From contig CAVYRJ010000009.1 of the NCBI GenBank assembly GCA_963770935.1, positions 1-64,000 of the forward strand: DNA of 64,000 bases, in the 5' to 3' direction. Below, piece by piece: positions 7,984 through 55,016 of the stretch (the stretch's first letter is position 1; each line of letters begins with the position of its first letter). Under the pieces are notes generated by a model. That model was given only the letters and a program-made list of their open reading frames with translations. It searched no databases and was not told the DNA's origin. Both the position numbers and the translations under genes were made by a program. The stretch is from Candidatus Bathyarchaeota archaeon. Lineage in GTDB: Archaea > Thermoproteota > Bathyarchaeia > Bathyarchaeales > Bathycorpusculaceae.

Positions 7984-8136
7984 ATGCCCAAATGTTGCTT
8001 CCTTACTGATAACAACTGTTGTGATGCAATTAAAATTGAATTGTCTGAAAGCCAATTAAAGAAGTGCAAGGATAATTTTAATGAGTGCTTAAGATACAAG
8101 TTTGCTAAGGACTCAGCTCGAATTAGGGCGATTTAA
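7984..8136 (+). CDS. Small Cys-rich hypothetical protein
   Basis: MPKCCFL..NCC...C....C.RY, with an AT-rich promoter-like element upstream. Confidence 0.4.
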   Translation: MPKCCFLTDNNCCDAIKIELSESQLKKCKDNFNECLRYKFAKDSARIRAI

Positions 8137-8292
8137 TACTACACTATTTTATCCTTAAAGGAGCATTATTTTTGCGTAACTGACAGAGTTCTTGCATGCG
8201 AGGGGGTTGCCCTTTATAGAGGATTACTCGATACCGGCGGTGTTTTTGCTTGACAGGTAAAAACTCTGAATGATCATTTTGATTCTATTGTG

Positions 8293-8577
8293 TTATTTGC
8301 ATTCTGAGATTTCGGGATTTCGGGTTAATTCTTCAAGACATTTGTTTAGTAATATGTTGTCTCCGACTTTAGAAACCAAAGATATCGGCAAGCATACAGT
8401 TGAGCTTCTGAATCTTTTCTTGAATCCAAGATCCTCAGATGCTGATTTTGACAACTTGACATGTAAATGGGTAACTTGCCATGTATCAACGTTAATTTCT
8501 ACTCCATTAATCTGTCCAAGGTCAAAACCGCCTGCACAAATAACAAATTTATCGGAAAGGTCTTTGAAGCTAACCAA
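8293..8577 (-). CDS. PRC-barrel domain protein
   Basis: L.DK.VI...G..LG.I.GVEIN...W.VTHL.V ... SKVGDNILL. Confidence 0.8.
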   Translation of the reverse strand: MVSFKDLSDKFVICAGGFDLGQINGVEINVDTWQVTHLHVKLSKSASEDLGFKKRFRSSTVCLPISLVSKVGDNILLNKCLEELTRNPEISECK

Positions 8578-8956
8578 ACATAACCACCACTTCTAGTACA
8601 TTATAGATTTGAATATAATACTTTTCATAGTGGTCTGCTTTGGAAGTGTTTTTTTGGGTCTTAGAGTACCAAAAAACAGCTTTCTGACTACTCTTGTGCA
8701 AACATAAAGTAATTCATTTTGATGCTTTGTATGCAGTTGTTTGCGGGTTTACCACTTAGACATTTGTATCTTGCTATTGCCAATTCAGCTTCCTCCTAGA
8801 TTGTCAAAGGTTTGCTCTCTGAGAAATCAGTTTAAGAATTTTTTTCTGTTGCGATTTGTGTGTTCTCGCTTTTTTCTTTGCCTTCTAAATGTATGAGCAG
8901 TTTATCTACTTTTAGAAGAGTATTTATGTTTAAGCTGTTGTTTTGGTTGTTGGCGT

Positions 8957-9089
8957 GGGCGAGTAGCTCAGTACGGATTGAAGAGTTCTCTTCAAAGAGG
9001 GGGTTCCCGCTTTGTTTTGATATCTTCCCGCAGAGAGCACCAGCCTCCTAAGTTGGGGGTCGAGGGTTCAAATCCCTCCCCGCCCGCCA
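8957..9089 (+). tRNA. tRNA-Arg(CCT) with a ~55-nt intron in the D-loop (about 8979-9033)
   Basis: Cloverleaf: D stem GCTC/GAGC, anticodon arm CCAGC-CTCCTAA-GTTGG, T arm GAGGG-TTCAAAT-CCCTC, encoded CCA; BHB-like junction with GAAGA/TCTTC. Confidence 0.9.
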
Positions 9090-9214
9090 CGGACAATCCC
9101 CGCCCGTTTTTGGTTTACTTTATACACCAAGCTTACTTGCGTTTTCTGAAAACTTTGTTAGCGCCAAAATCACACACGAACTCGAATCCTGCCTCAATCT
9201 CGACGAGCAAGCGA

Positions 9215-9626
9215 TATGCAAATCGGAGATTGAGGATATTGAACGGTGGTTTGAAACCTCAATTGGCGAAATCAAACTTCGAGGTCGAATCGACCGCGTC
9301 GACAAAGATGGATCCGGCTTCACTGTTGTGGACTACACGGCAAGTAAAAAGGGGGGTCATCGCTAAATGAGCTCAAAAAAGACATGCAAATGCTGGTTTA
9401 CGCACTCGCTGTCAAAGAAATCCCTCCCGGCGATAATCCATTGAAGGTGGGACACTGGTTCTTACGCTCCAACGAGAAAGTGTTCTTTGAACCCGAACAA
9501 AAAGCTATAGAGACTATGCAGGCAGAAATCGCTGAGATGGCTGCTAAGATTAAGGCTTCATCGTTTGAGCCTAAAAAGGGAAGCTGGGAGTGCAACTACT
9601 GCGACTACCAATGCCTATGCGACTAA
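9215..9626 (+). pseudogene. PD-(D/E)XK (RecB/AddB/Cas4-like) nuclease C-terminal fragment, frameshifted
   Basis: IERWFETSIGEIKLRGRIDRVDK...VVDY, a shift near the G-run at ~9351, then QMLVYALA...CNYCDY..LC; N-terminus missing. Confidence 0.75.
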
Positions 9627-9835
9627 AATACGCTGCTTTGTCCGCCTTTTTGCCTGAACTTGAATAACTCCTTCTTTGTTTCTTCTATAATCAGACAAGA
9701 GTTAAGCATCATTCCTTGACTTGTAGTGAGACTCCAATGCAAGAATCTGTCACGGTCTCTGAAAATATCTAAAAAACTAAGGAATTCTTCCAGCAATTCT
9801 CATATACGTTGTTATCTAATATCCTATGAATAGTA

Positions 9836-10903
9836 ATGGCTTCTCAAAAAAACCTTAAAGAAACAGAGACCGCTCTCACTAAAGCCAGAACTTTCATTCA
9901 AAGTAAACGTCGATCAGATGGTTTATGGTCTGATTTTTTAACCTTGGCAGGGGAAAGCATACATTGGGTTTCAGGCTACGTTGGCTACGCCTTGATCTCT
10001 AGCGCAAACAGCTTTGCGCAGAATACGGAATTAGATGGAATAGCCTTGAAGATTCTTCAACAGCAAAATCCAGACGGTGGATGGGGCTATGGACCCGGCG
10101 TTCCCTCGGATGCAGATTCCACGTCTTGGTGTCTACGATTTCTATCAAAACTCAAAGTACAAGACTCCAAAAGCAAGGAAAATGCTTTAGCTTTTCTTTT
10201 GAAGCATCAAAGCAAGCTCGACGGGGGTTTTAGGACTTATGCAAATCCAAAGGAAATCGCGCGCTTCATGAGGATTGGAGAAGGCATTTCGTTTGTCGGT
10301 TGGTCGAGTTCTCAGATGTGTGTTACCGCAGTTGCCTGTCAAGCCCTGATGGAAAACGGCTCTCGCGTTGGAGTTGAGGAGGCATTGGGCTTCATCAGAA
10401 AAGGACAAGCCGAGGAAGGCTTTTGGAATCCGTACTGGTGGAGCGGCAAACTCTATGCTACGCTTCACTGCATGCAAGCACTAAAACAAAAAGGCGACGC
10501 CAAAGACGAACAATCCCTGAGTAAAGCGCAACACTGGATTACCAGCACACAATTAACAGACGGCGGCTGGAGTGACGCCCTAAACCAAGAGCAAAGCTGG
10601 CCATTCTCAACCGCACTCGCAATCAAAGCATTACTGCTCACACTTAACCCCAAATACATGGAGAAGATAGCGGATGGGGTACGTTGGCTTATACAAAGTC
10701 AACTATCGGATGGAAGCTGGAACCCAAACCATATCTTGAGAATTCCCTACCCGTTTATGAAGGACCCTTGGATGCAAGAAGAGTGGCGAACAGACGGGAA
10801 AGCTATAAACGCCGCCATCAAAGACCACAATAGACTCTACACTACTGCAACAGCACTTTCAGCGCTAGCTGAATCGAAAAAATACGTGAGGGGAAATCAA
10901 TGA
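9836..10903 (+). CDS. Prenyltransferase/squalene-hopene-cyclase-like alpha-barrel protein
   Basis: QW repeats (QNPDGGW, QAEEGFW, QLTDGGW, QLSDGSW) and a DADST motif at the DxDD position. Confidence 0.85.
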   Translation: MASQKNLKETETALTKARTFIQSKRRSDGLWSDFLTLAGESIHWVSGYVGYALISSANSFAQNTELDGIALKILQQQNPDGGWGYGPGVPSDADSTSWCLRFLSKLKVQDSKSKENALAFLLKHQSKLDGGFRTYANPKEIARFMRIGEGISFVGWSSSQMCVTAVACQALMENGSRVGVEEALGFIRKGQAEEGFWNPYWWSGKLYATLHCMQALKQKGDAKDEQSLSKAQHWITSTQLTDGGWSDALNQEQSWPFSTALAIKALLLTLNPKYMEKIADGVRWLIQSQLSDGSWNPNHILRIPYPFMKDPWMQEEWRTDGKAINAAIKDHNRLYTTATALSALAESKKYVRGNQ

Positions 10904-12021
10904 CAACTTACCCCCATCCAAGAGAAGCCGCGCTAAGACAAGCAACCCAAAAGATAATGCAGGAGCTGAAGCCTAAGGCTTTGGCAATTTTCCATCGCAA
11001 GCCGCTAATAGACCCAGAATACTCTGACGTCTCAGACATAGACATCACAGCCATATGGACCCAACGAGAAGAGCAACCTGAAAGAATAGTAGTCGACACC
11101 CATGAGGGAAGGGTGTTTATAGATGTTCTCTGGGTACCAGTTTCAAAGATGCTAAACGCAGAAGAAGCGGCAAGTTACAAAACCCTACCGCACCTACTGC
11201 TTGAATCAGAACCCCTCTACGTTCAGACCGAGACAGTGCAGTCAATTATCGACAACATAAAACAGAAAACATACGAGCAAACAGTTTGGGAACACAGGAT
11301 TGGACATCAACTCGGTTTTGGCGATGCAGCCTTTGAAGAAGCCAAAAAAAACCTCGATTTCCCCTCGGCAGCTCTGTTTTTCTTGCAGACCGCACACGCA
11401 AACTACATAGTTGCCTTAGCCGATTCCCTCAAACAAAGCACCATGAGCTTGCTCACCCGCCCCGTCACCAAACTCAAACAAATGACCGCTAACAGCAACC
11501 CCTACTTAGCAACAGACATGGAAACCAATTTGCATTTGGATGTTGATCCATCTCCTAGCATAAGCGCTCTTAAAAGAATCCACATGGCGGTTTCCCAGAA
11601 ATGCGCGGGAAAACAACCATACGGCGTAAGCAACAGGACACTGGGACACTATACATACACGCTATCACCCATTGAGACCGATTATAGACTAATCTTTGCA
11701 ACGGCGCTAATTAAAAACAATGACCTCGCCAACGCTAATTTTTACTTGAGGTTTTGGGCTTACTCTCTTGCGAGATGCCCCGCAGTGCTTCATGAAGCTA
11801 ACCAGTCTAAAAAACCGTCGTTTTATGTTCCCATAGAATCCTTAAAAACCTCCATAGACATCGAACTCCCAAAAATTTTAGATGATATTAAAACAATCAT
11901 GGGAGGAGATATCACAGGTCAAAAAATTCAAGAATCAATCAAAGACACAATAAAATTTAAGGATCAAATTGTTAATCAAATCCAAAAGTCAGGAATTAAT
12001 ATTAAAAAAGAGAAGAAATAA
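10900..12021 (+). CDS. Hypothetical protein with a nucleotidyltransferase-like N-terminus
   Basis: ATGA overlap with the upstream gene; SDIDI and a later IDV resemble Pol-beta-fold acidic residues; helical C-terminal part. Confidence 0.55.
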   Translation: MTTYPHPREAALRQATQKIMQELKPKALAIFHRKPLIDPEYSDVSDIDITAIWTQREEQPERIVVDTHEGRVFIDVLWVPVSKMLNAEEAASYKTLPHLLLESEPLYVQTETVQSIIDNIKQKTYEQTVWEHRIGHQLGFGDAAFEEAKKNLDFPSAALFFLQTAHANYIVALADSLKQSTMSLLTRPVTKLKQMTANSNPYLATDMETNLHLDVDPSPSISALKRIHMAVSQKCAGKQPYGVSNRTLGHYTYTLSPIETDYRLIFATALIKNNDLANANFYLRFWAYSLARCPAVLHEANQSKKPSFYVPIESLKTSIDIELPKILDDIKTIMGGDITGQKIQESIKDTIKFKDQIVNQIQKSGINIKKEKK

Positions 12022-12051
12022 GCAACCCAAGATTAGTTGGGTCACACTTTT

Positions 12052-13095
12052 TTATGGCCATAGACCAGGTAATTGAGGTATGTTACTTACAACGCGAGTG
12101 AAGTATTGTCCATCTACCCCATCCGCTCCGGGCTGAGATACGCTTTTCCTCCCTTCTGATATGCATCGTGAACCATCAGCGCCATTTTGCGATGATAAAG
12201 CAGGTTTGCATGGTGGAAGCTGAAGTCCAGCGTCACCTGCTGCACCACCTTTCCCTGGGTTGCCGCCATCTCCGACTGGGCCTCCAACCCCCTTTTGAAG
12301 CTGAGGATGTATCTTAGCCAAGTTCACTCCGCTAGTATTGAATATTTTAACAGTACCCCCGTTGCCGCCATCTCCGCCGTCTCCACCGCAACCGGCATTT
12401 CCTCCTTTTCCTCCATCGCCTGGCAATCCAGCTTGCTGTATACAAACTGGGTTGGGGACTCCTATCCACGATTCTTCAGTGCCTGGAACTGCATTTGAAC
12501 CATCTTCGCCTTGACCACCAAATTGTCCGTTACCACCTTTTCCGCCTTTGCCGCCAGTTTGACCTCTAAGATCAATGGTTAAGTCACCGTCGATTTGCTT
12601 AAGCCAAATCTCAACCATAGGTGCATGAGCACCGTTTACTCCTTTTCCTCCTCTGCCGCCTGCCGCCCCGTTTCCACCGTCTCTTGCTTTGGGAAAAGCT
12701 CCTGCTGTTGTGTTAAGCGGGTCTATGGGATCAAAAAAGTTCGGGGATGCTACATCTGCTGGTGGAATAGGTCCTTGATTGAAGTTCGGTTGACCGTCAT
12801 CACCATTTTTAGCCGAGGTTTCGGGGTCAAGTCCTGAGTTACCCAAGGGCAACTGATAAGCGGGGAAGTAGTCACCATCAAGGTTATATGTGATTTCTCC
12901 AACTCCTCCAGCTAAAGTCATGCTAATCACATCGGTGATTATCTTTAGCATCCTCGGGGCACCCAGAGGCGCGCCTTGTTTGGGTTTAATGACAAGTTGA
13001 GCTTGGGGGCCAATGAATTCTAGTCTGCGACAAAAGATTACGTCATCTACCACATCTGTGTTGCCTTGTACTGTAAAAATCTGAGTTTTGATCAT
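12052..13095 (-). CDS. Gly-rich (GGX/GXX repeat) protein, paralog 2
   Basis: GGKGGKGGNG, GGDGGDGGNGG and similar runs; colinear with 13111-14073. Confidence 0.85.
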   Translation of the reverse strand: MIKTQIFTVQGNTDVVDDVIFCRRLEFIGPQAQLVIKPKQGAPLGAPRMLKIITDVISMTLAGGVGEITYNLDGDYFPAYQLPLGNSGLDPETSAKNGDDGQPNFNQGPIPPADVASPNFFDPIDPLNTTAGAFPKARDGGNGAAGGRGGKGVNGAHAPMVEIWLKQIDGDLTIDLRGQTGGKGGKGGNGQFGGQGEDGSNAVPGTEESWIGVPNPVCIQQAGLPGDGGKGGNAGCGGDGGDGGNGGTVKIFNTSGVNLAKIHPQLQKGVGGPVGDGGNPGKGGAAGDAGLQLPPCKPALSSQNGADGSRCISEGRKSVSQPGADGVDGQYFTRVVSNIPQLPGLWP

Positions 13096-13110
13096 GCTTC
13101 TTTAGCCTCC

Positions 13111-14073
13111 TTAGTTTGGAACTCCTGTAAGTTCATACTGGTTTGCTTCTCCATCATAGCCGTCTTTTCCTTTGAAATTAGTTTGCCACTTGGGATCTGC
13201 TTCATCCATAGACAACCCTGGCGGACCATCTGAACCTCGATATTCAGGTCGAGAGGGACACGGATCGTTTTGTTTACCTTGAGCTCCGCCTTTCCCACCT
13301 TCGCCCCTTTTGCCCGGGTCACCAGCATCTCCACCTCTACCTCCTTTTACGATGTAGTTCCATGTTTGAACCAAGGGCAAAGATGAACTGCCAACAAAGA
13401 CTTTTACTATACCACCGTTACCGCCGTCACCACCTCTTCCAGGGTAACCAGCGTCTCCACCTCTGCCTCCAATGCCTCCCCTCCCCGGCTCACGATCGCA
13501 TTGATCTCCATCATACCACGAATCACTAGTCTGCGATGCAGCGCCTTTTTGTCCATCGCCACCTTTCCCACCATTGCCCCCTTTACCGCCTTTTGCGCCA
13601 TCTTGCCCTTTAAAATTGATAGTCAATGCATCGGGGTGTATTTGAGACACATCTCTAGCGAAGATTTCTAACTCTGGAGCATGCATGGCGTTCGTGCCTT
13701 TTGGACCGCTTTTTCCATGATCACCATCTCCTCCGTTCTCAGCTTGCGGGTAATTACCCTCACCAGCGGGCGAGTTACCGTCAGCTCCATCCGCCCCCAC
13801 CCCCAACTGCGTTACAGCAGGAGTGTCAGGATCGAGCCCCGGCTCCCCATCTAAATCATACGTAATTTCAGCCCGATCCACAATCTCAATCTTATCAACC
13901 ATTATAGTAAGCGAAGTGGGCGGGATCATATTTCTCTCTAAACGCGAAAGGATTAGTTTGCTCTTCTTTTCAAACCGCAAAATAGACGCCTGCAAAACCA
14001 TCTGACCATACTTCATATCTCCAACAACAGTGAAAACCGACATATCATCGACCCCCCAAAGAAGAAACATCAA
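13111..14073 (-). CDS. Gly-rich (GGX/GXX repeat) protein, paralog 1 (likely start MSVFTV)
   Basis: GGKGGNGGKGGDG, GGDGGNGG; shares ITYxLDG and HAP..EI with paralog 2. Confidence 0.85.
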   Translation of the reverse strand: MMFLLWGVDDMSVFTVVGDMKYGQMVLQASILRFEKKSKLILSRLERNMIPPTSLTIMVDKIEIVDRAEITYDLDGEPGLDPDTPAVTQLGVGADGADGNSPAGEGNYPQAENGGDGDHGKSGPKGTNAMHAPELEIFARDVSQIHPDALTINFKGQDGAKGGKGGNGGKGGDGQKGAASQTSDSWYDGDQCDREPGRGGIGGRGGDAGYPGRGGDGGNGGIVKVFVGSSSLPLVQTWNYIVKGGRGGDAGDPGKRGEGGKGGAQGKQNDPCPSRPEYRGSDGPPGLSMDEADPKWQTNFKGKDGYDGEANQYELTGVPN

Positions 14074-14467
14074 TTAGGTTTTTAATGTCGTATTCTAGGT
14101 AGTTTTTGACGGAGACATCTCCAAAACCGTACGAGAACCCCTCAACTAAATTATCTATAAACTTCCTTGCGTACTCGATTGAAGGTGCTTCAAGGATTGC
14201 AATGCCATGAGGCCGAGCCGCATTACGCGGACGGTCAGGCAAACCAATGAAACTAGTGACTTCAGTTAAATCTGCGACGCGATAAATTTTTAGTTTGTTT
14301 TGTTTGGTGGTTCGGGTTATGTAGTCGAGTCCTTTTTGCAGGACTTGGGGGTGGCTTGAGATTTGCTGGAGGTTTTCTGGAGTTATTTGGATGCTCCAGG
14401 TTATTAGGTACTGGTTTTGGGCTTTCTCTAGGGTAGGCCTTTTGGGTTTGTCTGGTTTTAAAACCAT
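14045..14467 (-). CDS. Hypothetical protein, possibly a YCII/GYD-like alpha+beta fold
   Basis: First gene of the Gly-rich operon; HGIAILEAPSIEYARKF. Confidence 0.6.
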   Translation of the reverse strand: MVLKPDKPKRPTLEKAQNQYLITWSIQITPENLQQISSHPQVLQKGLDYITRTTKQNKLKIYRVADLTEVTSFIGLPDRPRNAARPHGIAILEAPSIEYARKFIDNLVEGFSYGFGDVSVKNYLEYDIKNLIDVSSLGGR

Positions 14468-14763
14468 AAAAAATTCGCCTAATACACATTAGGTATCTTA
14501 GAATTTAAGAATTGCGTTAAGCGACTCAAGAAGAACTAAACCATAAAAAAATAACGCCTAAACATCAACAGCCTCTAAAGTCACTAACCTTCACGGTGGC
14601 GGGAACATGAAAAATCTCTCCCAAGCACTTCCCTACAACAAAGAAAATAAGAATACAATAGAAACTACCTTGCATCCATTTAATTCAAGAAGTAGTTGAA
14701 CAGAAAAAAATTTTCTACCGGTCAACTACTACACCCAACCAATAAAAGAAAAAAAGGGCAAAG

Positions 14764-14807
14764 GGGTGAAATCTCCACTTTGAGCAGGTTCAACTCCCAT
14801 CCCCAGC
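14764..14807 (+). repeat. att-like site: element arm plus a divergent tRNA-3'-like core
   Basis: GGGTGAAATCTCCACTT...AGGTTCAACTCCCATCCCCAGC. Confidence 0.55.
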
Positions 14808-14811
14808 TCAG

Positions 14812-15006
14812 TTATGAATGCCTGTGGCCGCAATCACGGCAAAGGTAGCGTTGAATTTTTGCAGAATTGGTATACCTAAATCCATCTCTGTAAGACTTAA
14901 AAGAGCCACACATAGGACATTTTACAGATGGCAGTTTCTTTCTGTCAAGAGCATTATTTGATATTTTCCTGCCACAATGAGGGCAGTTTATGATTTTTTT
15001 CTCCAA
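14812..15006 (-). pseudogene. Zinc-finger remnant, InsA-like or integrase N-terminal domain
   Basis: CPMCGS..SYRDGFRY.....IQRYLCRDCGHRHS, ending 4 bp from an att-like site. Confidence 0.55.
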
Positions 15007-15093
15007 TTTTATTCCTCCATTTTGTTTTTATGTGCAAACTTAGAAAAAAGGGGGTTTTGCGGGTGTCGTTAAAATAGACTCCACTTGAGCTTA

Positions 15094-15123
15094 GGTTCAA
15101 ATCCCTCCCCGCCCGCCACGGAC
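15094..15123 (+). repeat. Perfect 30-bp copy of the tRNA-Arg 3' end and flank (att-like)
   Basis: GGTTCAAATCCCTCCCCGCCCGCCACGGAC is identical to 9065-9094. Confidence 0.95.
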
Positions 15124-15391
15124 CTTCGCTGGTTTCCACCATTGCCGGTATTCCTCAACCTGCTTGACAACATCTAGCGAATCGATTTTTTGGGTTTTTG
15201 GAATTTGAGTTTTGATGAGGTTATAAGTATGCTCCAAGCTGCGCAAGTAACTCATTTCTCAGGCCTCGATTCTCTTTCTTGATTATTGCATTTAAATCAT
15301 ACGACTTGACGGTAGAATTGTTTTGCCGTCATGATTATGGTTAAAGGCCTTCCAACGGTTGCCGGGAATAGAAAAAAGCGGCTTGATTATT

Positions 15392-15461
15392 TTTTATAGA
15401 TTTTGATGATAAAACCAGAAAGACCTTTCCTGCTATACCCCCTAAAAAATTGAAAGCCTTT
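15392..15461 (+). repeat. Promoter-plus-hairpin repeat, copy A
   Basis: TTTTATA..TGATGATAAAACC.GAAAGACCTTTCC..CTATACCCC..GAAAGCCTTT. Confidence 0.7.
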
Positions 15462-15539
15462 GTTGTCCTGACTTTTCTTTTGATACATATTCAGGGTGCA
15501 GAAAATAAATAAGTCAATAAGGCAGAGAAACTCAAGGGC

Positions 15540-16118
15540 ATGAAAGATATGGGTAACTGTGCTAAGTGCGGCAAAAAGTTTGGTTTCATGCAATTTACTC
15601 GTCAATGGAAAACAAAAGCATTCCATCCAGAGTTTTATGGTCAATCTTTGCATTGGGAGTGCTTAGTTGAGGAATGGAATAGTATTCCAAAGGTTTGCTC
15701 GAACTGCGGCTATTACGAATTGACAGAGACCGTCGAGGATGAAGATGTTGGTGCTTACAACAATACCAGATGCAGAAAATTCAAAATAGCTCTTGATATA
15801 GCTGGCGAAGAGAGACTAACACAATTAGGCGCAATGGCTACTCAATGTTCAAGTTACATTGGGAAGAGCGAATACCGCGACAAATGCTTAAGAGGAGAAA
15901 TCAATTCTGATAAAACAAATATCCAAATCATCCTTGATTTTTCATCATTAAAGGACATAATGGCAAAAGGCGGTCTAATCATGGCAACTTACAAGTGCCC
16001 CAACTGCAATGGGATGGTTAACATTCCCGAAGCCGGAAAAGTCCTCGTCTGCCAATACTGCGGAACGCCGATAAAACCCGTGGACATATTCGAGAAGATC
16101 AAATCACTGATTCAATGA
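15540..16118 (+). CDS. Multi-zinc-ribbon hypothetical protein
   Basis: Several CxxC pairs; C-terminal CPNCNG...CQYCG. Confidence 0.75.
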   Translation: MKDMGNCAKCGKKFGFMQFTRQWKTKAFHPEFYGQSLHWECLVEEWNSIPKVCSNCGYYELTETVEDEDVGAYNNTRCRKFKIALDIAGEERLTQLGAMATQCSSYIGKSEYRDKCLRGEINSDKTNIQIILDFSSLKDIMAKGGLIMATYKCPNCNGMVNIPEAGKVLVCQYCGTPIKPVDIFEKIKSLIQ

Positions 16119-16183
16119 AAGGGCAAAGGTCTGTCGCCGATTGGCCCGGGTAGAAAGAATCAACCCAGAAATTATTTATTGTA

Positions 16184-16257
16184 TTTTATATGTTCTGATG
16201 ATAAAGTAAAACCTGGAAGACCTTCCTCCCTCTATACCCCAATTTTTGGAAGGCCTT
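16184..16257 (+). repeat. Promoter-plus-hairpin repeat, copy B
   Basis: TTTTATATGTTCTGATGATAAAGTAAAACCTGGAAGACCTTCC..CTATACCCCAA..GGAAGGCCTT. Confidence 0.8.
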
Positions 16258-16432
16258 GGCGCATTCGAATTCTCTGGTTCTTCCCCACGCATTTTACACA
16301 TTTAAACACATAAGCTTATAAGCGCGTATACATATATGTACTTATGTTAATAAGCGAACTCGAAGGGACAAAAAAGAAACAAGCAAAATTTGCCTGCTCA
16401 CTTATTCCAGAAACAAAAACAGGTGACTTAAC

Positions 16433-16576
16433 TTGGGCCGCATAAGCGTTGACATTCCAGACGAACTCGAAAAACAGCTCAGATTAAAAACGGTAGAGCA
16501 ATTCGGAGGCAAAAAAGGCGACTTATCGAAAGCAATCCAAGAAGCGGTCAAAACATGGATCGACAAAAAACAATGA
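16433..16576 (+). CDS. Ribbon-helix-helix (CopG/Arc-like) micro-regulator, 47 aa
   Basis: TTG start after an AGGTGA RBS; MGRISVDIPDELEKQLR...GDLSKAIQEAVKTWI; shorter than any ORF in the track. Confidence 0.8.
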   Translation: MGRISVDIPDELEKQLRLKTVEQFGGKKGDLSKAIQEAVKTWIDKKQ

Positions 16577-16735
16577 AGCCGTCCCTCTTCAAATCCTAAT
16601 AACTACATTATAAGAAGCCTATGTAAAAGGCAAGGGCAAGCCAGTTAGCCTGGAACTCCTCGCATGAGGCATATGGGCAATCTAGCTGCAAAAACCCTTT
16701 TAGATTGTTCTGCATTCAAGCAACGATAATTTCTT

Positions 16736-16960
16736 TTAGCTATTACCTTTCGGTTCATTATTGGCAAGTTCACTTTCGCTTCTCAATTGGCGTTTTAGAT
16801 AAGCAACAACTTCAAAGCTTTGGTTAATTTGAAGCGCAACAATAGAAACCAATTCCCATCCATCTAAACCATATTTATTCAACAAATCTTCTTGCGTTTT
16901 GACCCCGGCATCCAAGATTCCTTTTACCAGAGCAATTGAGACATACTCCCATTTTATCAT
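16736..16960 (-). CDS. DUF4177-like small protein
   Basis: KWEY...LNKYGLDGWELVSI...YLKR. Confidence 0.8.
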   Translation of the reverse strand: MIKWEYVSIALVKGILDAGVKTQEDLLNKYGLDGWELVSIVALQINQSFEVVAYLKRQLRSESELANNEPKGNS

Positions 16961-17100
16961 GTTTGAAACCTCTTTGCACTTAACGATAATTACGGTTAAT
17001 AACAGTGTGTTACTGTGACCTTGCAGTCACAAAACATTACGTAGACAAAGACCTTTCACGAATTGACCCAATAGAGTAAATCAAATAATATTAATATTCA

Positions 17101-17173
17101 TTTTATATGTTGTGATGATAAGGTAAAACCTGAAAAGCCTTTCCTACTATATCCCAATCGGCGGAAGACCTTC
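17101..17173 (+). repeat. Promoter-plus-hairpin repeat, copy C
   Basis: TTTTATATGTTGTGATGATAAGGTAAAACCTGAAAAGCCTTTCC.ACTATATCCCAA..GGAAGACCTT. Confidence 0.8.
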
Positions 17174-17379
17174 ATGCCGAATACAGCGTACACTGATCGG
17201 GCTAATCCGCGAGAGCTTTTTCCCAGTCGTCAACGAACAAATAGACGCCCAAGCCTGGGGAGCAATAAAGATCAGAAGTTATGCCCGAAGCCATGACGAC
17301 TGCGCCCAAAACGCCCATGACTCGGAATTTTTGTGTATATTTTTTGGTTTCCAATCAGTTGCACCTACCATATGTGAGC

Positions 17380-17520
17380 TTCCGACTAATCGGTGCCTAT
17401 GCCCAACTGCCTGTCGAGCTTGGCGATGAAGTCGTGGAGAAGAAGCTTCTGGGATACCGCTCGAGGGCAGAGTTTGTGGCTGAAGCGGTAAGGGACAAGC
17501 TGATTCAAGTTAAGAAATAA
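17380..17520 (+). pseudogene. RHH regulator fragment
   Basis: C-terminal part of ORF 17281-17520: LPVELGDEV...GYRSRAEFVAEAVRDKL. Confidence 0.5.
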
Positions 17521-17796
17521 TTTTCAATAACCTGCAAGGCAGGTATCCTTTTCCCGAAAGGTAATAAGATCATTTATGCAGCACTTTCAAAAAACCAAAA
17601 AATTGAAGTTTTTCCGAAAATCCGAAGCTCAAGAAAGTTATTCCCAGATCAGGACAAGGTTCCAGCGTGTGGGCGGTTTTGAAATTTTCCCGGGAAATTT
17701 CTGGGTAAAACACCCGAGTTAAATCAATGAAGGAGCAAAGGAAAAGTCAATAAGCAAAAGAGGGGAGTGTCCCATTTTGAATTATAGGAGCTCTCG

Positions 17797-18366
17797 GTGC
17801 CCTACAAAAAAATAGAAAAAATCTATAACAATCAAATAAGAAATAAGTCTAACATGCCTAGACCTAATTCAAATATCAGAAGAAGTGAATTTCCAGAAGG
17901 ATTGAAACTCTGCAAAGAAAACGCACTTTCATTTCTTGAATCGGCAAAGATACTAATTAATTCAAACAAAATAAACCATGCCGTTATTCTCTTTCAATTC
18001 GCTAAAGAGGAAGTTGGAAAACTCGCTTGGTTGATTAAGCTTTCAGAGGAACAATCTGAAGCAATTCAAATTCCAAGAGAACTATTTCGAAACCACAAAA
18101 ATAAGTCTGAAAAAGCTGAAGATTTTCTAGGCATTGAATCTTGGGTGATGAAGCCTGGTTTTGATAAAAGATACTTTTATTGTGGCCCTGAGGGTGGTTA
18201 CGCTTCTGCAGTTGAGTCTGACCATAATGCGCGTTTAAAATGTGCATTTGTAAACTATGATGGTCAACTTAAGAAATGGTTTAAACCAGGAATAGACGCG
18301 GACAAAGAAGTGTTTTTGGCAACTATTGAAAGAGTCAGAGAAAAACTTGATTGTTTAATCTTTTAG
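17797..18366 (+). CDS. AbiV-family HEPN domain protein (putative abortive-infection RNase); likely start MPRPN
   Basis: ENA..FLESAKIL....HAVILFQFAKEEVGK...FRNHKNK...R..CAFVNY. Confidence 0.75.
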   Translation: MPYKKIEKIYNNQIRNKSNMPRPNSNIRRSEFPEGLKLCKENALSFLESAKILINSNKINHAVILFQFAKEEVGKLAWLIKLSEEQSEAIQIPRELFRNHKNKSEKAEDFLGIESWVMKPGFDKRYFYCGPEGGYASAVESDHNARLKCAFVNYDGQLKKWFKPGIDADKEVFLATIERVREKLDCLIF

Positions 18367-18403
18367 GTTAAAAGATAATTGATCCAAAAAAAATGGAATT
18401 TTC

Positions 18404-18452
18404 GGGTGAAATCTCTTTTAGGGCGTAGGATCAAATCCCTCCCCGCCCGCCA
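18404..18452 (+). repeat. att-like site: element arm plus a 24/25 copy of the tRNA-Arg 3' end
   Basis: GGGTGAAATCTC...GGATCAAATCCCTCCCCGCCCGCCA. Confidence 0.9.
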
Positions 18453-18462
18453 GCAACTAAAG

Positions 18463-18828
18463 TCAGCTTTTTTTTGAGATGTTTTTTGTAGCTACTATGT
18501 TAACGCCTGTATCGAAGATGTTTTGGATGATTGGTTCATGGATTTTGATGGGTGCTTCTACTTCAACTTTTGCCAGCAAAGTCATAGCGTCGAAGATTCT
18601 GCTTTTAGGTATTGGTTTGTTTGTTCTTACACTAACTAATGGAAGATTACCGTGTTTCACTTTCACCGTGGTTGTCAGGGTTCGTTCAGGACTGGAAATC
18701 TCTTTTTCCGCGTATTCCAGCCCAACTTTGCATCGGTTTCCGCTGACGTTACGTATTTTTTTCCCGACATAATCTACAGTGATGTAACAGCCCATAGGAC
18801 AACCGATACAGATCATTTCTTTCTTCAT
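18463..18828 (-). CDS. DUF1667 CxxC protein (third gene of the glpA-like operon)
   Basis: CIGCPMGC, GNRC..G..YA..E...PERTLTTTV. Confidence 0.88.
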   Translation of the reverse strand: MKKEMICIGCPMGCYITVDYVGKKIRNVSGNRCKVGLEYAEKEISSPERTLTTTVKVKHGNLPLVSVRTNKPIPKSRIFDAMTLLAKVEVEAPIKIHEPIIQNIFDTGVNIVATKNISKKS

Positions 18829-20078
18829 TTCCTTAAAACCTCAACTTTTAGCGAGTTAACAGCGCTGGTTTCGCTTCCCTTCAGTTTTATCTTAATCATC
18901 TGAGCAGGATGAACTTTACGAAACTTATTTGTCTTTACCAGCGTTTCTCCATCAAAGAACCCAACAGCTACATCTTCTCCGGGGCAGGTTACACGAATCG
19001 AAAACTCAAGGTCAACGCCACGACAGATGCTTTGGGGCAAAACATACCGAATTTTATTACCTGCCTCTACAGGGATTCTTTCCACCTTTCGAATCTTTCC
19101 GAGAACGTATTCTGCCGCGCTTTTTCCCGCTTTCTCCGCTTCAAGAGTAACAAAATCCACTACATCGTGAACATGGAGGGCGTTACCACACGCAAAAACT
19201 CCAGACACAGAAGTTTCAAGATTTTCGTCGACGATAGCTCCTCCAGTAACTTGACTGAGTTTAACATCACAATTTTTTGATAGGTCATTTTCTGGAATCA
19301 AGCCTATAGAGAGAAGGAGAGTGTCACAGGCAATCTTTTGTTCTTTTCCTTTTATTGGCTTCAAATCCTTGTCTACGGGAGAGATAGTGACTGCTTCAAC
19401 CTTATTCTGCCCATGGATTTCGGTGACGGTGTGTAAGAGAAGAAGAGGAATCTTATAGTCAATTAGGCATTGTTGAATGTTTCGCGGCAGACCATTGGTG
19501 TGAGGAAGAATCTCAACTACAGCGTGGACTTTAGCGCCTTCCAGTGTAAGACGACGAGCCATAATCAAACCTATGTCGCCCGAACCGAGAATAACAACGT
19601 CTTTGCCAACCATCACATTTTTCAAGTTGATGAGATTCTGGGCTACACCAGCAGTATACACTCCAGCAGGTCTTGTTCCTGGAATGTAAATCTGTCCACG
19701 CGTTCGCTCACGACACCCCATAGCAAGAACTATGGCTTTGGCGTCAAAACAAAGTAGCCCCTTAGGACTAGCAACGAACACCTTTTTTTGAGGCGTGACT
19801 TCAAGCACCATACTGTCAAGCATATAAGGAATTTTTAACTTCTTCAGTTCATCTAAGTATCTTTGAGCGTATTCCGGACCGGTCATTTGTTCTTTAAAAA
19901 GTTCAAGACCGAACCCATCATGTATGCATTGAGGAAGGATGCCGCCAAGCCAACCGTTCCTTTCTACGATTATCAAGTCTTTAAGGCCATTTTTCTTTGC
20001 ACTAATAGCTGCAGCTAGTCCTGCTGGACCAGCACCTATCACAACCAAATCAATATTTTGAGACGGTAACTCACTCAC
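18825..20078 (-). CDS. FAD/NAD(P)-dependent oxidoreductase
   Basis: GAGPAG, GGILPQCIHDGFG, AMGCRER, GSGDIGLIMARR, CGNALHVHD. Confidence 0.9.
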   Translation of the reverse strand: MSELPSQNIDLVVIGAGPAGLAAAISAKKNGLKDLIIVERNGWLGGILPQCIHDGFGLELFKEQMTGPEYAQRYLDELKKLKIPYMLDSMVLEVTPQKKVFVASPKGLLCFDAKAIVLAMGCRERTRGQIYIPGTRPAGVYTAGVAQNLINLKNVMVGKDVVILGSGDIGLIMARRLTLEGAKVHAVVEILPHTNGLPRNIQQCLIDYKIPLLLLHTVTEIHGQNKVEAVTISPVDKDLKPIKGKEQKIACDTLLLSIGLIPENDLSKNCDVKLSQVTGGAIVDENLETSVSGVFACGNALHVHDVVDFVTLEAEKAGKSAAEYVLGKIRKVERIPVEAGNKIRYVLPQSICRGVDLEFSIRVTCPGEDVAVGFFDGETLVKTNKFRKVHPAQMIKIKLKGSETSAVNSLKVEVLRK

Positions 20079-21574
20079 TTTTTCTTACCCTCCCTCAGGA
20101 CTTTAGTTTCACCTATAAACAGCGGCGAATCTAAATTCTTCAACTTAATCTCTTCAGGTGACAGCCCATATTCCTCTTTTAGAATTTCCACAATTTTGGG
20201 TAAGCAGAAACCCCCCTGGCATCTACCCATACCCGCTCGGGTACGATATTTCACGGCGGAAATTGTTTTCTCTGAAATTTGGTTGTTTAACGCGTCTAAG
20301 ACTTCCAGTTTGGATACATGTTCACACCTACAGACGATTTCACCGTATGCGGGATTTACTTTAATCAAAGAAGCTTGCTCTTTTCTTGATGCTTCACTAA
20401 AAGGAGTTATTCTTCTACGAATAGGATTAAAATCTGTTTTTTCCTCCAAATCCATTTTCGCTTTAATCATTTGAACAACCAATCTTGCGATGGCAGGAGA
20501 GGATGTGAGACCAGGGGACTCCATTCCTATCATGTTGATGAAGTTTTCAACGTCTTCTTGGATGACGAAGTCACGAGACCCTTTCTCTTCTGGCGGAGTA
20601 ATCTTAGACCTCACTGCAGAAAAGCCGTAGATAACTTGGTTTAGGGGAATGGAGGGAAGTAGACTCTTAGCCCCCTCAATTAGTTGCCGAATCTTTTCTT
20701 TGGTTGTTCTTGTATCTTCTCGCTCATTGATGAATTCTTCACTAGGTCCAATCAATATGTTTCCATCCAATGTGGGTGTGAGATGAACACCCAAGACTCC
20801 TGCGATTTTTGGCGGCACCGGATAGACCATGCTGTTGATTAAGTCGCGACAATTCTTGTCAAGGATGAGATATTCGCCACGGCAGGGATAGAGTTTGTAA
20901 TTATCAATGCCTATCATAGCGGAGATTCTGTCTGCGAATAGACCTGCACTATTCACAACGATGTCTGCGTGGAAGACTCCCTGATTTGTTGTTACTTTGT
21001 AACCGCTGTTCACTTGTTTTATTGCTGACACTTGGGTGTTGACGTGAACTTTCACGCCATTGTTTAAGGCATTCTCAGCTAAGGCAATTGTGAAAAGATA
21101 AGGGGGAACGATTCCAGCCACAGGAGAATGTAACGCATAGAGGGCATCCAAGTGGGGTTCTCGCTTTTTAAGTTCTTCTCCAGAGATTATGTTTAATCCT
21201 TTGACTCCGTTTCCTTCCCCCACGGCTTTTAAGCCTTCTAAGTCTTCGAGTTCTTCTTCTGTTCGGGCAATTACATGTTTTCCGCAGAGTTTGTAGGGTA
21301 CATCAAGTTGCTTCGCCAACTCTGGAAACATCAGTCGCCCTTCAACACACAGTTTAGCCTTCAAGCTCCCCCTCGGATAGTAAAGACCTGTGTGAAGGAC
21401 TCCACTGTTACCTTTGCTAACGCCAGAACCGACGTCAGAATCCTTCTCCAACAGCACTGTTTCGATTTTGAATTTTGCTAGTTCTCTTGCGATGGCACAG
21501 CCTATTACGCCAGCTCCTATCACTAATACTTCACATCTGCTGTTCACAGTGAGTCGTCCCTTACACATTAACAA
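20075..21574 (-). CDS. GlpA-like FAD-dependent dehydrogenase with a BFD-like [2Fe-2S] domain
   Basis: GAGVIG, SKGNSGVLH, ESPGLTSSPA, VCRCE...RAGMGRCQGGFC. Confidence 0.88.
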   Translation of the reverse strand: MLMCKGRLTVNSRCEVLVIGAGVIGCAIARELAKFKIETVLLEKDSDVGSGVSKGNSGVLHTGLYYPRGSLKAKLCVEGRLMFPELAKQLDVPYKLCGKHVIARTEEELEDLEGLKAVGEGNGVKGLNIISGEELKKREPHLDALYALHSPVAGIVPPYLFTIALAENALNNGVKVHVNTQVSAIKQVNSGYKVTTNQGVFHADIVVNSAGLFADRISAMIGIDNYKLYPCRGEYLILDKNCRDLINSMVYPVPPKIAGVLGVHLTPTLDGNILIGPSEEFINEREDTRTTKEKIRQLIEGAKSLLPSIPLNQVIYGFSAVRSKITPPEEKGSRDFVIQEDVENFINMIGMESPGLTSSPAIARLVVQMIKAKMDLEEKTDFNPIRRRITPFSEASRKEQASLIKVNPAYGEIVCRCEHVSKLEVLDALNNQISEKTISAVKYRTRAGMGRCQGGFCLPKIVEILKEEYGLSPEEIKLKNLDSPLFIGETKVLREGKKK

Positions 21575-21769
21575 CTATAGAAGAACAAGATAGCATCTGC
21601 TCGGATAAAAATTGTTCTCAAATACTTTATCCTAACGTAGCCTGCGCAGTCTGACAACAATAATAACATTTCGTATCTGTTCAGCAAATATAATTTCTTG
21701 AATAGCCCCATGTATCATGACATCCAATTCCGCAACTGTTTGAGTGAAAAAACGGGAAATGCGGATAAT

Positions 21770-21812
21770 ATCTCCACTTGCAACGGAGGTTCAAGTTTCT
21801 CCCCGCCCGCCT
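21770..21812 (+). repeat. att-like site: ATCTCCACTT arm plus a 21/25 copy of the tRNA-Arg 3' end
   Basis: ATCTCCACTTG...GGTTCAAGTTTCTCCCCGCCCGCC. Confidence 0.8.
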
Positions 21813-21823
21813 CTAATACTCAT

Positions 21824-22837
21824 CTATTTTGTTGGATTAGGGCGAAGTTGAGTTATAGAGGAGATGTCTCCCTTTATGATTGGACTTCCGTTCTTGTATG
21901 AACATTGGATGCCGTATTTTTTCACGCATGCTAAACAAAGAACGGGGTCGCAGAGATTTGTGCTGAGGTATTTTTCGCCGCCGTCAGGAGCGATGCAGAC
22001 CAGAACGCCGTTTGAAAGCGTTTTTGCTTTTTGTAGAGCAACATGGAAGATGGCGCCTGAGCTGGGTCCAACAAAAAGCCCCTCTTGCAAAGCCAAAAGC
22101 CGTGCTGCGTCATCTGCCGCTTTGGGATTGACGTAGTGTACTTCGTCGACGTAGTCTTGGTTCCAGATTGCGGGAACATACTGAGTTTTCAAATCCTTTA
22201 GTCCCTGAATTGATGTGCCAACTTCAGGTTGAACTCCGATAACTTTTACATTTGTGTTGTGCTCTTTGAGCCGTTTTGAAACGCCCATAAGCGTACCGGT
22301 GGTACCGATACCACCGAAGAAATGTGTGATCTGCCCGTTGGTATCTTTCCAAATCTCTTCACCTGTAGTTTCGTAGTGAGCCATAACGTTTGCTTCGTTT
22401 GCAAATTGATTTGGCAGGAAGTACTGCTCTGGGTTTCTGTTGACTATTTCATGAGCCAAATCTTCTGCTCCATCCATTCCCTTGGAGCCATCGCTGAGCA
22501 AAACCCTGGCACCTAACGAGATAAGAATTTGGCGTCTTTCCAACGACATAGTTTCAGGCATAACCAAAACTAAATCGTAGCCTTTGGCACGGCAAACCAA
22601 AGCTAACCCGATGCCTGTGTTTCCACTAGTGGGTTCAATCACCGTTTTTCCGTTTGTTAGCTCCCCTGATTTTTCAGCCTGTTCAATCATGTATTTGGCA
22701 ATTCGGTCTTTGACAGAGCCGCCGGGATTATATTTCTCCAGTTTGATGAAAATTTGAAGGTTAGGATTTAGATTCAATCGTGTTATCTCAACCAATGGGG
22801 TGTTGCCGATAAGTTCAAGCACGCTTTTTGCATTCAT
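21824..22837 (-). CDS. cysM: Cysteine synthase (PLP-dependent, CysK/CysM family)
   Basis: IGNTPL, NPGGSVKDR, EPTSGNTG, GTTGT, GPSSGA; start taken at MNAKS. Confidence 0.88.
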   Translation of the reverse strand: MNAKSVLELIGNTPLVEITRLNLNPNLQIFIKLEKYNPGGSVKDRIAKYMIEQAEKSGELTNGKTVIEPTSGNTGIGLALVCRAKGYDLVLVMPETMSLERRQILISLGARVLLSDGSKGMDGAEDLAHEIVNRNPEQYFLPNQFANEANVMAHYETTGEEIWKDTNGQITHFFGGIGTTGTLMGVSKRLKEHNTNVKVIGVQPEVGTSIQGLKDLKTQYVPAIWNQDYVDEVHYVNPKAADDAARLLALQEGLFVGPSSGAIFHVALQKAKTLSNGVLVCIAPDGGEKYLSTNLCDPVLCLACVKKYGIQCSYKNGSPIIKGDISSITQLRPNPTK

Positions 22838-22933
22838 CCAAATAGACCGCCAAGAATAGTAGGTATCTGCTTCGGCATTATAAATTGTCTGCAGATATAT
22901 GCGCCTCATAATCCGAGAGAGAAAAACAACCAG

Positions 22934-22997
22934 CTAAGTTAGGTGTCGAGGAATCAAATCTTTCCCACCCTCTACGGACAAGCCCGCCACATTTTGG
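22934..22997 (+). repeat. Degenerate copy of the tRNA-Arg 3' half plus flank (outer att)
   Basis: CTAAGTTAGGTGTCGAGGAATCAAATCTTTCCCACCCTCTACGGACAAGCCCGCC..TTTTGG aligns to 9048-9113. Confidence 0.75.
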
Positions 22998-23350
22998 AAC
23001 TTAGGAGATAATTACAAAATTAAATTTTTCTTACAGTCATTTTTTTTCTTTATTGTCTTTGGACTTTTGTAACAATAAAACGGGATCTAACGCGTAAGGT
23101 GTTGATAATTAAGAAATCGGTTATTATGTGACCTTGAAGTTTGTGTGACATTTTTCGCAATTAAAAACTTCGATACTAAAAAAATGATTTTTCAGTGACT
23201 TTGAATGTTTTTTAACTTCATTACCACAGCTGGGACAGTTAACCATCCAAAACCCTCACTATCTTATTGTCGGAAATGGAATAAGAGTATTGTGGACACA
23301 TAAATCTCAGGATATACGCTAAAAGTAAAGGATTTTAATTGATTGAAATA

Positions 23351-23617
23351 TCATGTTGTATTAGTAGTGGGAGAAGAAATTGTTAATTCATCTTCGTTCA
23401 CTTTAACTATTAAACGATATTGTTTTACTATTTTTATTACCTGTTCAAATTGGTCACCAAATAGTCCCTTAAAATAGACGCTATAATATGGCGAAGGGAG
23501 GTGATTAGATTTAGATTCTATTAAATTGACTATCTGAGGAAAGAGGTCTGGGATTTTGTCATAAATTTCTTTTAATAGGTAAATTGCTTGGCTTCTATCC
23601 ATTTGATGCCTTAACAC
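23351..23617 (-). CDS. Small hypothetical protein
   Basis: MDRSQAIYLLKEI... in an AT-rich region. Confidence 0.5.
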   Translation of the reverse strand: MLRHQMDRSQAIYLLKEIYDKIPDLFPQIVNLIESKSNHLPSPYYSVYFKGLFGDQFEQVIKIVKQYRLIVKVNEDELTISSPTTNTT

Positions 23618-23800
23618 TATTTTCTTGTATCACAATTAAAGCTTAACTCAAATCCCCTAATTACCTCAAGCCGGCAAGTTCTAACACATCAATTAATAAA
23701 ATCAAGAACAGTGTGAAGCCACACCTATTACAAACATCAATTTTTAAGACCTACTTGGATCTGCCCAAAAAAAAGCTTCCAAAGCGAATTGAAAACCCTG

Positions 23801-25016: not shown

Positions 25017-25229
25017 TAAAATGCCTCCTGGATCATTTAACCTGTATAATCAAGCTTACTCGCTTCTTAGCAGAATAAGTATTTTCAAGTAGAAATATGT
25101 TGCCAATTTTATGGCGCGCTTAAATTTTTGTCTTAGTCAACGTCCCGAATCAAATTTGCAGCATATTAGAAACTACGCACAAACCAGATTGTGGATGCTG
25201 TTTATCCTGTTCCTGCAGCAAAAAATAGG

Positions 25230-26594: not shown

Positions 26595-26685
26595 AGCTCT
26601 ACATTAAGAGCTGATGTTCTTTTAAGTCTTAATGAATTAACCCTATAAAACGTAAAAAAAAGAAAACAAAGAAAAACTTTGTTTT

Positions 26686-51267: not shown

Positions 51268-54290
<3,023 letters not shown>

Positions 54291-55006: not shown

Positions 55007-55016
55007 TAAAAAAATT

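Follow-up and report, generated by a model that had tools for sequence, protein, structure and literature searches.

The window analysed here comprises positions 1 to 64,000 (forward strand) of contig CAVYRJ010000009.1 from the genome assembly GCA_963770935.1 of a Candidatus Bathyarchaeota archaeon. Downstream of a tRNA-Arg(CCT) gene it holds a row of four accessory-gene units, which are separated by direct copies of the tRNA 3' end and which an initial annotation had taken for an integron-like cassette array. Bathyarchaeia are abundant and uncultured, and to our knowledge their mobile elements have barely been described. In the following, G000 denotes the genome of the window, whereas other genomes, loci, contigs and sequencing runs carry G-, L-, C- and X-numbers, respectively. 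The target gene, the repeated sites with their attachment (att) site parts and the traces of integrase genes are located as follows (ORF, open reading frame; aa, amino acids; nt, nucleotides).

8957..9089, plus strand: tRNA-Arg(CCT) gene with a 56-nt intron, the integration target; exons 8957-8977 and 9034-9089, intron 8978-9033, attL core 9065-9094
9095..9198, minus strand: element-side arm (P') and integrase C-terminal remnant; last 21 codons plus stop at 9136-9198, remnant of the integrase of the newest element
14745..14811, plus strand: inner site; arm 14745-14780 and tRNA-Cys 3'-end copy 14787-14811; nhmmer arm profile E 8e-4
14812..15006, minus strand: zinc-ribbon ORF of 64 aa, homologous to the N-terminal domain of the integrase family; tblastn 44-54% over 35-39 aa, E 3e-8 to 1e-4
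15040..15123, plus strand: attR of unit 1; arm with a 9-nt insertion, then the 30/30 tRNA-Arg end at 15094-15123
18386..18457, plus strand: junction site; arm 18386-18415 and tRNA-Arg core 18428-18452 (24/25)
21746..21817, plus strand: junction site; decayed arm 21746-21779 and core 21788-21812 (21/25)
22925..22999, plus strand: outermost, most decayed site; pseudo-copy of the tRNA 3' exon and P'-like flank, without arm

Repeated sites and target tRNA

A repeat search corroborated the direct recurrence of the tRNA-Arg 3' end that the initial annotation had described: a 26-nt stretch of this end was found at 9064, 15093 (1 mismatch) and 18427 (2 mismatches), and none of 100 shuffled sequences gave a match. 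Five direct copies lie in register, namely at 9065-9094, 15094-15123 (30/30), 18428-18457 (87% of 30), 21788-21817 (77%) and 22950-22979 (63%), and their identity to the tRNA end declines as the distance from the tRNA grows, again as had been noted. The additional site around 14787 had been regarded as a divergent Arg copy, which turned out to be wrong, its core being a 22/22 match to the 3' end of the tRNA-Cys of G000 itself.

Alignment of the sites unveiled a left arm of ~37 nt, which is common to the sites at 14787, 15094, 18428 and 21788 and is lacking at the tRNA. Its sequence order is AAAAAA-GGG-TGC-GGGTGAnATCTCCACTT, with the GGTTCAA of the T-loop following six bases further. The arm variant with the 9-nt insertion (15040-15123) occurs in genome G227 as well. 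At the outermost site the shared arm is absent, and 22934-22997 aligns to the entire 3' exon of the tRNA together with the downstream flank of the tRNA. We rejected the arm as a coding sequence: variation at third-codon-like positions pointed to it, but no frame is consistently open, the copies at 18428 and 21788 hold stops, and the conservation ends 20 nt upstream. For a putative arm hairpin no covariation was seen among the variants inspected by eye. A profile search of G000 with the arm yielded three weaker matches on the other contigs C11, C3 and C1. The gaps between cores and gene ends were measured as 10 bp (18452 to 18463), 11 bp (21812 to 21824) and 0-1 bp (14811 to 14812).

The tRNA gene itself was missed by a default ARAGORN run and by Rfam. 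Its intron (8978-9033) is placed in the D-loop and not in the anticodon loop, and once these positions were cut out of the sequence, ARAGORN called tRNA-Arg(CCT). Furthermore, Logan contigs (contigs, not reads) of four sequencing runs from four studies (X1, X2, X3 and X5) were mapped on positions 7500-27400, and contigs of X3 lack exactly 8978-9033 (55-56 nt) and are thus intron-less. The same tRNA gene was found in G016 and G107 with another intron, the intron sequence differing among the window, G016 and G107. The intron of G016 (L042 19347-19504) includes a near-copy of the variable-region/T-arm sequence of the tRNA itself, GGGGGTCGAGGGTTC.

Integrase family and intact elements

Searches with PF00589 and PF16795 returned no intact integrase on the contig of the window, so that the earlier statement that no integrase is present is valid for intact genes; it fails for two fragments, which were detected at 9136-9198 and 14815-14928, both on the minus strand. 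The product of 9136-9198 is 81% identical to the C-terminus of the integrase of G107 (tblastn, E 1e-6) and 67% identical to the integrase on contig C10 of G000, and positions 9028-9189 share 82% DNA identity with the tRNA-Arg/integrase junction of G107. No further integrase fragment was found in positions 1-30000 at E below 0.5. The second fragment is the integrase-like part of the zinc-ribbon ORF (14812-15006), which points away from the attR at 15094. A zinc-ribbon ORF directed away from an adjoining arm was also observed in G192, L109 and L144, and this arrangement may represent either a repeated integrase stump or a small accessory gene. A minimal element consisting of integrase and att site only was ruled out as its explanation, as in 30 loci with a full-length integrase no arm was located less than 1.5 kb from the integrase start. 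At the inner site of G192 beside such an ORF (L104 and L105, 22833-22885) the core is not tRNA-like and carries the inverted repeat GGTTCA...TGAACC, which would be the form expected for a core-type recombinase binding site.

An intact reference is an element of ~15.7 kb on contig C1 of G192. There, a tRNA-Cys(GCA) gene is followed 43 bp further on by the gene of a 394-aa integrase, which lies on the opposite strand and is directed towards the tRNA, then by about 15 kb of other genes and finally by arm and core. At the far end the arm adjoins a copy of the tRNA-Cys end (27/30), and an older arm with a Cys copy is located 2.7 kb beyond. The 394-aa protein combines an InsA/IS1-type zinc ribbon at residues 17-50 with the catalytic domain that is diagnostic of tyrosine recombinases (Phage_integrase, PF00589, 64 bits at a cut-off of 27.1); the fragments of the window are too short for this diagnosis. 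With the integron-integrase model TIGR02249 the family integrase reached 54 bits at a cut-off of 265.

In G000 an intact integrase of the same family (425 aa, 48% identical to that of G192) is encoded on the terminal part of contig C10, immediately behind tRNA-Leu(CAG). With this protein as a query, 83 of 101 genomes of the genus gave a match at E 1e-30 or better, and among the 30 best full-length loci ARAGORN placed a tRNA at the integrase 3' end in 23 (Leu-CAG, Leu-TAG, Pro, Cys, Ala and Arg-CCT). In integrated copies the integrase genes are whole (394-432 aa) and lie beside the tRNA; in G107 an intact integrase occupies the same tRNA-Arg(CCT) as in the window. One of the 30 loci (L228) has an arm in place of the tRNA and shows arm, core and integrase 3' end in an attP-like order. 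Because of the intact order in G192, the adjacency of family integrases to tRNAs and the attP-like locus, the arm is taken to be the far-side arm of the attachment site in a family of tRNA-integrating elements, and the sites of the window to be attR-type junctions. The zinc ribbon of the integrase may bind this arm.

Two further spots of the G000 assembly belong to this context. C8:5880-6190 holds a further decayed junction of the same element family, in which the 3' end of tRNA-Leu(CAG) stands as an orphan copy without tRNA body or arm on its left and leads into a P'-like arm and 67 aa of an integrase C-terminus (60% identity to the integrase of G192). The contigs C10 (end, 54088-55619) and C13 (end, 51217-51543) stop inside or just beyond family integrase genes. 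These elements may vary between strains or be repeated, and the assembly may lack part of the mobile DNA.

The locus in relatives and in population contigs

Comparison with other genomes of the genus unveiled different gene content at the locus. In G016 the same upstream genes and the tRNA are followed by 5.6 kb without similarity to the window even at the protein level, as opposed to 17.6 kb in the window; to the right of this segment lies a DEAD-box helicase gene, which corresponds to the gene at 26686. A cysteine-synthase-family (PALP) gene forms unit 4 of the window; it is only 47% identical to the other copy of G000 on C7, whereas 5 of 18 genus genomes contain closely related genes (68-84%), and in G115 it occupies the same position relative to the helicase. 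Just past the stop of the PALP gene a decayed arm and core are found in G016, G115 and the window alike, but to the left of them each of the three genomes has different DNA. The junction is hence an old one that they have in common, and its neighbours on the tRNA side are newer and different. A purely stepwise picture is complicated by G105 and G114, where the PALP gene lies beside a DUF1801 gene, which in the window is located upstream of the tRNA; the region must therefore also have been rearranged in other ways. The glpA-like operon of unit 3 was found in one of the 18 genus genomes searched (G114, 75% DNA identity), where the homology stops at the operon edges and no sites are present.

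Breakpoints at the sites are provided by unit 1. Positions 9418-15119 are 98.3% identical over 5745 nt to contig C17 of G227, and nothing else of window positions 1-45000 matches in the 36.7 kb examined of this contig. G227 belongs to another species, and the helicase-side flank (25236-28525) was found on another of its contigs at 82-83% identity. On the right, the shared block stops at the core at 15119, after which G227 continues with a different P' arm and another integrase stub of 21 aa. The left end is the 11-mer AAATCCCTCCC inside the PD-(D/E)XK nuclease gene of the unit; there, G227 has the arm and the half-core GGTTCAAATCCCTCCC fused exactly at the 11-mer to the rest of the nuclease gene. 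At this left junction the core of a junction has recombined with a similar sequence within the element, which removes the integrase side and leaves the cargo abutting the core. In the window the same element lost its integrase by a different route than in G227, the stub of 21 codons adjoining the final 427 nt of the nuclease gene. The pseudo-core AAATCCCTCCC of the window (9418-9430) was dismissed as a hidden att site, as it is coding sequence here, though it is the recombination point in G227.

Among the mapped contigs, each joint is represented by one assembled contig (depth 5-15), and stretches without contig cover (X1, X3 and X5) were not scored as absence. A contig of X1 comprises 27 nt ending at 15119, 13 other letters and then the sequence from 21828, thereby skipping units 2 and 3. 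In X2 a contig runs to 14809, continues with 30 other letters including a second partial tRNA-Cys end, and then proceeds from 9132 (the integrase stop), as would be expected from a circular form or a tandem duplication of unit 1; a further X2 contig leads from 14753 back to 9465. Loose contig ends were observed at 9096 and 9110 (just behind the tRNA), 9430, 14764 (the left arm edge) and 21853. Breakpoints coincide with the sites in G227 and in contigs of X1, X2 and X5. The expectations of the initial annotation that relatives differ in gene content with breakpoints at the repeats, and that the sites are recombination junctions at the tRNA with the newest insertion nearest to it, are borne out by these comparisons.

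Occurrence of the arm beyond the window

With up to 3 mismatches the arm pattern gave 53 matches in 35 of 101 genus genomes, compared to 2 for the reversed control. A degenerate form retrieved at least 119 stretches from the species-genome collection, and among the 80 matches listed 74 carry the title Candidatus Bathyarchaeota or Bathyarchaeia. The sequence to the right of the arm varies by site and resembles the T-arm and acceptor end of various tRNAs. In the loci of the 80 listed matches (516 kb; the locus size of 8 kb limits the visible spacing) an arm profile identified 118 sites, which are distributed over 79 loci. Adjacent arms form 39 pairs, of which 38 lie on the same strand, at a spacing of 83 to 5636 bp. 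L140, for example, has five sites in 4.2 kb, and L131 a tRNA-Leu followed by four sites. No gene family is common to all sites within 1.45 kb of 35 sites; in a larger locus set the recurrent neighbour families are the integrase, a protein of ~1000 aa and a few cargo families. Viral contigs gave no match to the strict arm pattern, and 18 matches to a looser 17-mer were attributed to chance, as none has the A-run or the T-loop.

Cargo of the units

The units carry 1 to 6 or more genes on both strands, and the genes neighbouring the sites have no consistent orientation.

9200..9626, plus strand: 3' part of a PD-(D/E)XK (Cas4-like) nuclease gene, frameshifted; Pfam PDDEXK_1 positions 161-247, PADLOC Cas4 E 1.5e-4
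9836..14467, no single strand given: cargo of unit 1; prenyltransferase/squalene-cyclase-repeat protein, 373-aa protein, two Gly-rich repeat proteins and 140-aa ORF (Pfam)
15124..18385, no single strand given: unit 2; small ORFs, TFIIB-type zinc-ribbon protein, DUF4177 protein and AbiV-family protein at 17797-18366 (Pfam, NCBIfam)
18463..21574, minus strand: unit 3; three genes, for a DAO and BFD protein, a pyridine-nucleotide-disulphide oxidoreductase and a DUF1667 protein (Pfam, NCBIfam)
21824..22909, minus strand: unit 4; accessory cysteine-synthase-family (PALP) gene, NCBIfam cysKM 366 bits

The operon of unit 3 resembles glycerol-3-phosphate oxidase/dehydrogenase systems. Of the module labels assigned initially, AbiV, the glpA-like operon and cysteine synthase were recovered and the zinc finger proved to be integrase N-terminal-like, whereas no Pfam match was obtained for the supposed NTase (10900-12021) or RHH protein (17281-17520). 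PADLOC, applied to 17 island proteins, returned only the weak Cas4 match and one weak zinc-ribbon match; AbiV was recognised via Pfam and NCBIfam, not by PADLOC.

In unit 1, two adjoining minus-strand genes for Gly-rich proteins (12052-14073) contain internal repeats of ~59 nt in five copies, and the gene block 11113-13965 was found again in at least 10 genus genomes at 65-69% DNA identity. Unit 2 includes a segment of ~1 kb (16112-17184), in which a 54-aa ORF and the DUF4177 gene lie between 56-nt direct repeats (16183-16238 and 17100-17155; 80% identical, with TGATGA boxes). Sequences matching parts of this segment (71-92% identity) are present in 80 of 120 genus genomes, frequently in several copies; G000 has a second copy at C9:124049-124433, and similar sequence is present just outside the attR of G192.

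Beyond the outermost site, two overlapping ORFs of 182 and 183 aa at 23801-24812 look like a single frameshifted gene, for which G115 has a 414-aa ORF; relatives of this protein directly adjoin arm sites in L149 and L167. A second variable spot is the segment 28525-33512, which is missing between conserved neighbours in G016 and G115 and includes a 903-aa PQQ/beta-propeller-like protein (29559-32270), a distant 998-aa relative of which lies inside the stack of G115.

Discussion

The repeated tRNA ends, the family of arms, the intact elements in reference genomes, the fragments of integrase genes and the coincidence of breakpoints with the sites lead us to a reading that we consider likely, namely that the locus consists of remnants which were stacked by serial integration at the 3' end of tRNA-Arg(CCT) by one integrase family and which subsequently decayed. 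The elements would belong to a Bathyarchaeia family encoding a tyrosine integrase of ~395-430 aa with an N-terminal zinc ribbon, the intact integrated members of which have the order tRNA, core, short P' arm, integrase gene directed towards the tRNA, cargo, ~37-nt arm and tRNA 3'-end copy. Each new arrival would rebuild the tRNA and shift older elements outwards, and because of this displacement the copies would decay with distance from the tRNA. The integrase genes would later be lost, either by ordinary deletion, as proposed for the 21 codons left in the window, or by recombination of the junction core with an internal look-alike, as in G227, where the junction lies inside the nuclease gene. 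What is left would be integrase-less units of cargo, arm and core, so that accessory modules may persist between arm-plus-core junctions with the newest nearest to the tRNA. The remnants may still be able to recombine; hints of their excision or transfer are confined to the single-contig joints and the 98.3% identical copy in another species.

Several observations fit this serial integration and decay less well. Integrase remnants were not detected behind the sites at 15094, 18428 and 21788, only the tRNA-proximal junction keeping one, and in the 80 listed loci an integrase C-terminal fragment is detectable after only about 5-6 of the 118 sites, while random deletion would be expected to leave more. 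The cargo genes that end 0-11 bp from a core at three junctions resemble precise joining rather than erosion. A tRNA-Cys-type site within a tRNA-Arg stack would not result from simple serial insertion at one tRNA, and cores are likewise mixed within one array in G162, L131 and L140. Finally, in the G000 assembly (91% complete) no cognate integrase of the Arg type was found, and the strict arm motif was found only at this locus.

These points lend themselves to a true cassette system, in which short integrase-less units with one site would be the normal mobile form, moved in trans by integrases encoded elsewhere, and the tRNA would act as an integron-like capture platform. Arrays of short units are indeed common, and in 38 of 39 adjacent pairs both members share one orientation, at distances of 83 bp to 5.6 kb, but the 8-kb limit of the loci skews the spacings short. 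Unit 1 is integrase-less and core-bounded in both genomes and yet 98.3% identical across species with flanks of 82-83%; it keeps, however, a stub of its own integrase and was thus recently autonomous, and its G227 copy shows concretely that at least some integrase-less units arise through deletion at a pseudo-core. The X2 contig joins the end of unit 1 (14809) to the integrase stub (9132) in a circle- or tandem-like manner, and the X1 contig links a new core of 27 nt with the PALP gene, omitting units 2 and 3, but each joint is a single assembled contig rather than a set of reads, in one case with only 27 nt on one side. An intact family integrase that could be the source of trans activity is present in G000 at tRNA-Leu on C10. 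Against such a system, no unit was found at two different tRNAs, and the glpA-like operon of G114 is devoid of sites. Weighing both sides, we consider the cassette system unlikely; mobilisation in trans is kept in play because stubs are scarce, cargo lies 0-11 bp from cores, cores are mixed and an integrase-less unit has recently moved between species. A broader form, in which the zinc-ribbon integrases would run an open gene-capture platform and move single-site integrase-less modules in trans among tRNA stacks, in-gene look-alikes and species, is put forward here as a tentative and rather doubtful proposal. The initial annotation had treated cassettes as the primary units; serial integration and decay suits the locus better in this respect, since unit 1 is visibly a decayed integrase-bearing element with intact relatives at tRNA-Cys (G192) and tRNA-Arg(CCT) (G107).

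The repeats might also have nothing to do with recombination and be tRNA-fragment pseudogenes, small RNAs or terminator elements spread by duplication, with the variability of the island being unrelated. Read on the opposite strand, the A-run with which the arm ends is a T-run similar to an archaeal terminator, Rfam contains no family for the arm, and partial tRNA genes are a known annotation problem according to the accessible part of one report (PMC9897764). Nevertheless, the arm always precedes the 3' end of the very tRNA that holds an integrase-bearing element (Cys in G192, Arg in the window, Leu in L131), L228 presents arm, core and integrase 3' end in attP-like order, differences between genomes break exactly at the sites, and the neighbouring genes lack a consistent orientation. 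This explanation is therefore highly improbable.

Integrons and clusters of attC sites lacking integron-integrases (CALINs) likewise line up units that each terminate in a recombination site, the newest lying at the anchor; their attC sites are imperfect palindromes with a variable sequence but a conserved structure. Integron cassettes are mostly single promoterless ORFs in one orientation, and IntI lies beside attI or, in CALINs, is absent. The label integron-like had to be given up: neither IntI, attI nor attC hairpins were found, the units are multi-gene and of mixed orientation, and the sites are linear, tRNA-derived 3'-end copies with an arm, as at the attR of tyrosine integrases.

A close parallel is offered by tandem accretion with the cis-mobilizable elements (CIMEs) related to ICESt1/ICESt3 of streptococci, where, in the text available of the source (PMC5704250), an integrase-less decayed unit keeps its att sites and the next element integrates beside it, giving tandem composites with complex excision. 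Common to both are integration into the 3' end of a target gene, loss of the integrase with retention of att sites, and direct 3'-end repeats flanking each unit. Derivation of the integrase-less units from integrase-bearing elements of the same att family, which marks a CIME, was found for unit 1 and is probable for units 2-4. In contrast to CIMEs as described there, the stacks reported here have an archaeal host, no conjugation genes and another integrase with a zinc-ribbon N-terminus; the ~37-nt arm is conserved across elements of different tRNAs, and up to five very short units occur per stack.

Similar features are described for the tycheposons of Prochlorococcus in the accessible sections of the preprint (bioRxiv 10.1101/2020.12.28.424599), whose tRNA islands have partial tRNA copies between elements, newcomers pushing older ones inward. 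There as here, tyrosine recombinases act at tRNAs, fragmented integrases and scattered partial tRNAs mark older events, and the cargo is metabolic or defensive. The tycheposons are bacterial, however, with unrelated integrases, and circles and tandem junctions were shown by PCR there, whereas they are single contigs here. For Thaumarchaeota a survey (PMC6563490) located 57% of integrations in tRNA genes and reported arrays that tyrosine-recombinase elements form by re-using one site; the portion of the survey available deals with whole elements and describes neither stacks of integrase-less remnants from below one kilobase to 6 kb nor an arm motif. Archaeal integrases of the Sulfolobus spindle-shaped virus (SSV) type, also called suicidal, carry the att site inside the integrase gene, which is split upon integration (PMC7253208, PMC8371274, as far as these texts were accessible). 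Archaeal tyrosine integrases, tRNA targets and integrase fragments at element ends are shared with the present family, but a split integrase of the SSV type was ruled out, as the integrase gene that lies next to the tRNA in integrated elements is whole.

In the literature searched, which covered virus and provirus surveys of Bathyarchaeia, no account of the integrase family, the arm or the stacks was found, and supplements might list comparable cases; the accessible text of one Bathyarchaeia virus paper mentions integrases only in passing. The underlying principle is already known from bacteria and other archaea, and is seen here for an integrase family undescribed in that literature.

For the Bathyarchaeia, the arm motif together with the tRNA-end copy represents a simple and specific marker for integration junctions and accessory-gene islands. 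Such islands carry genes such as those for AbiV, a glycerol-3-phosphate-oxidase-like operon and an extra cysteine synthase, and the junction in G227 offers a concrete example of how an integrase-less, cassette-like unit forms. If the open capture platform were to prove true, archaea would possess a tRNA-based counterpart of integrons in function, shuttling modules for defence and metabolism.

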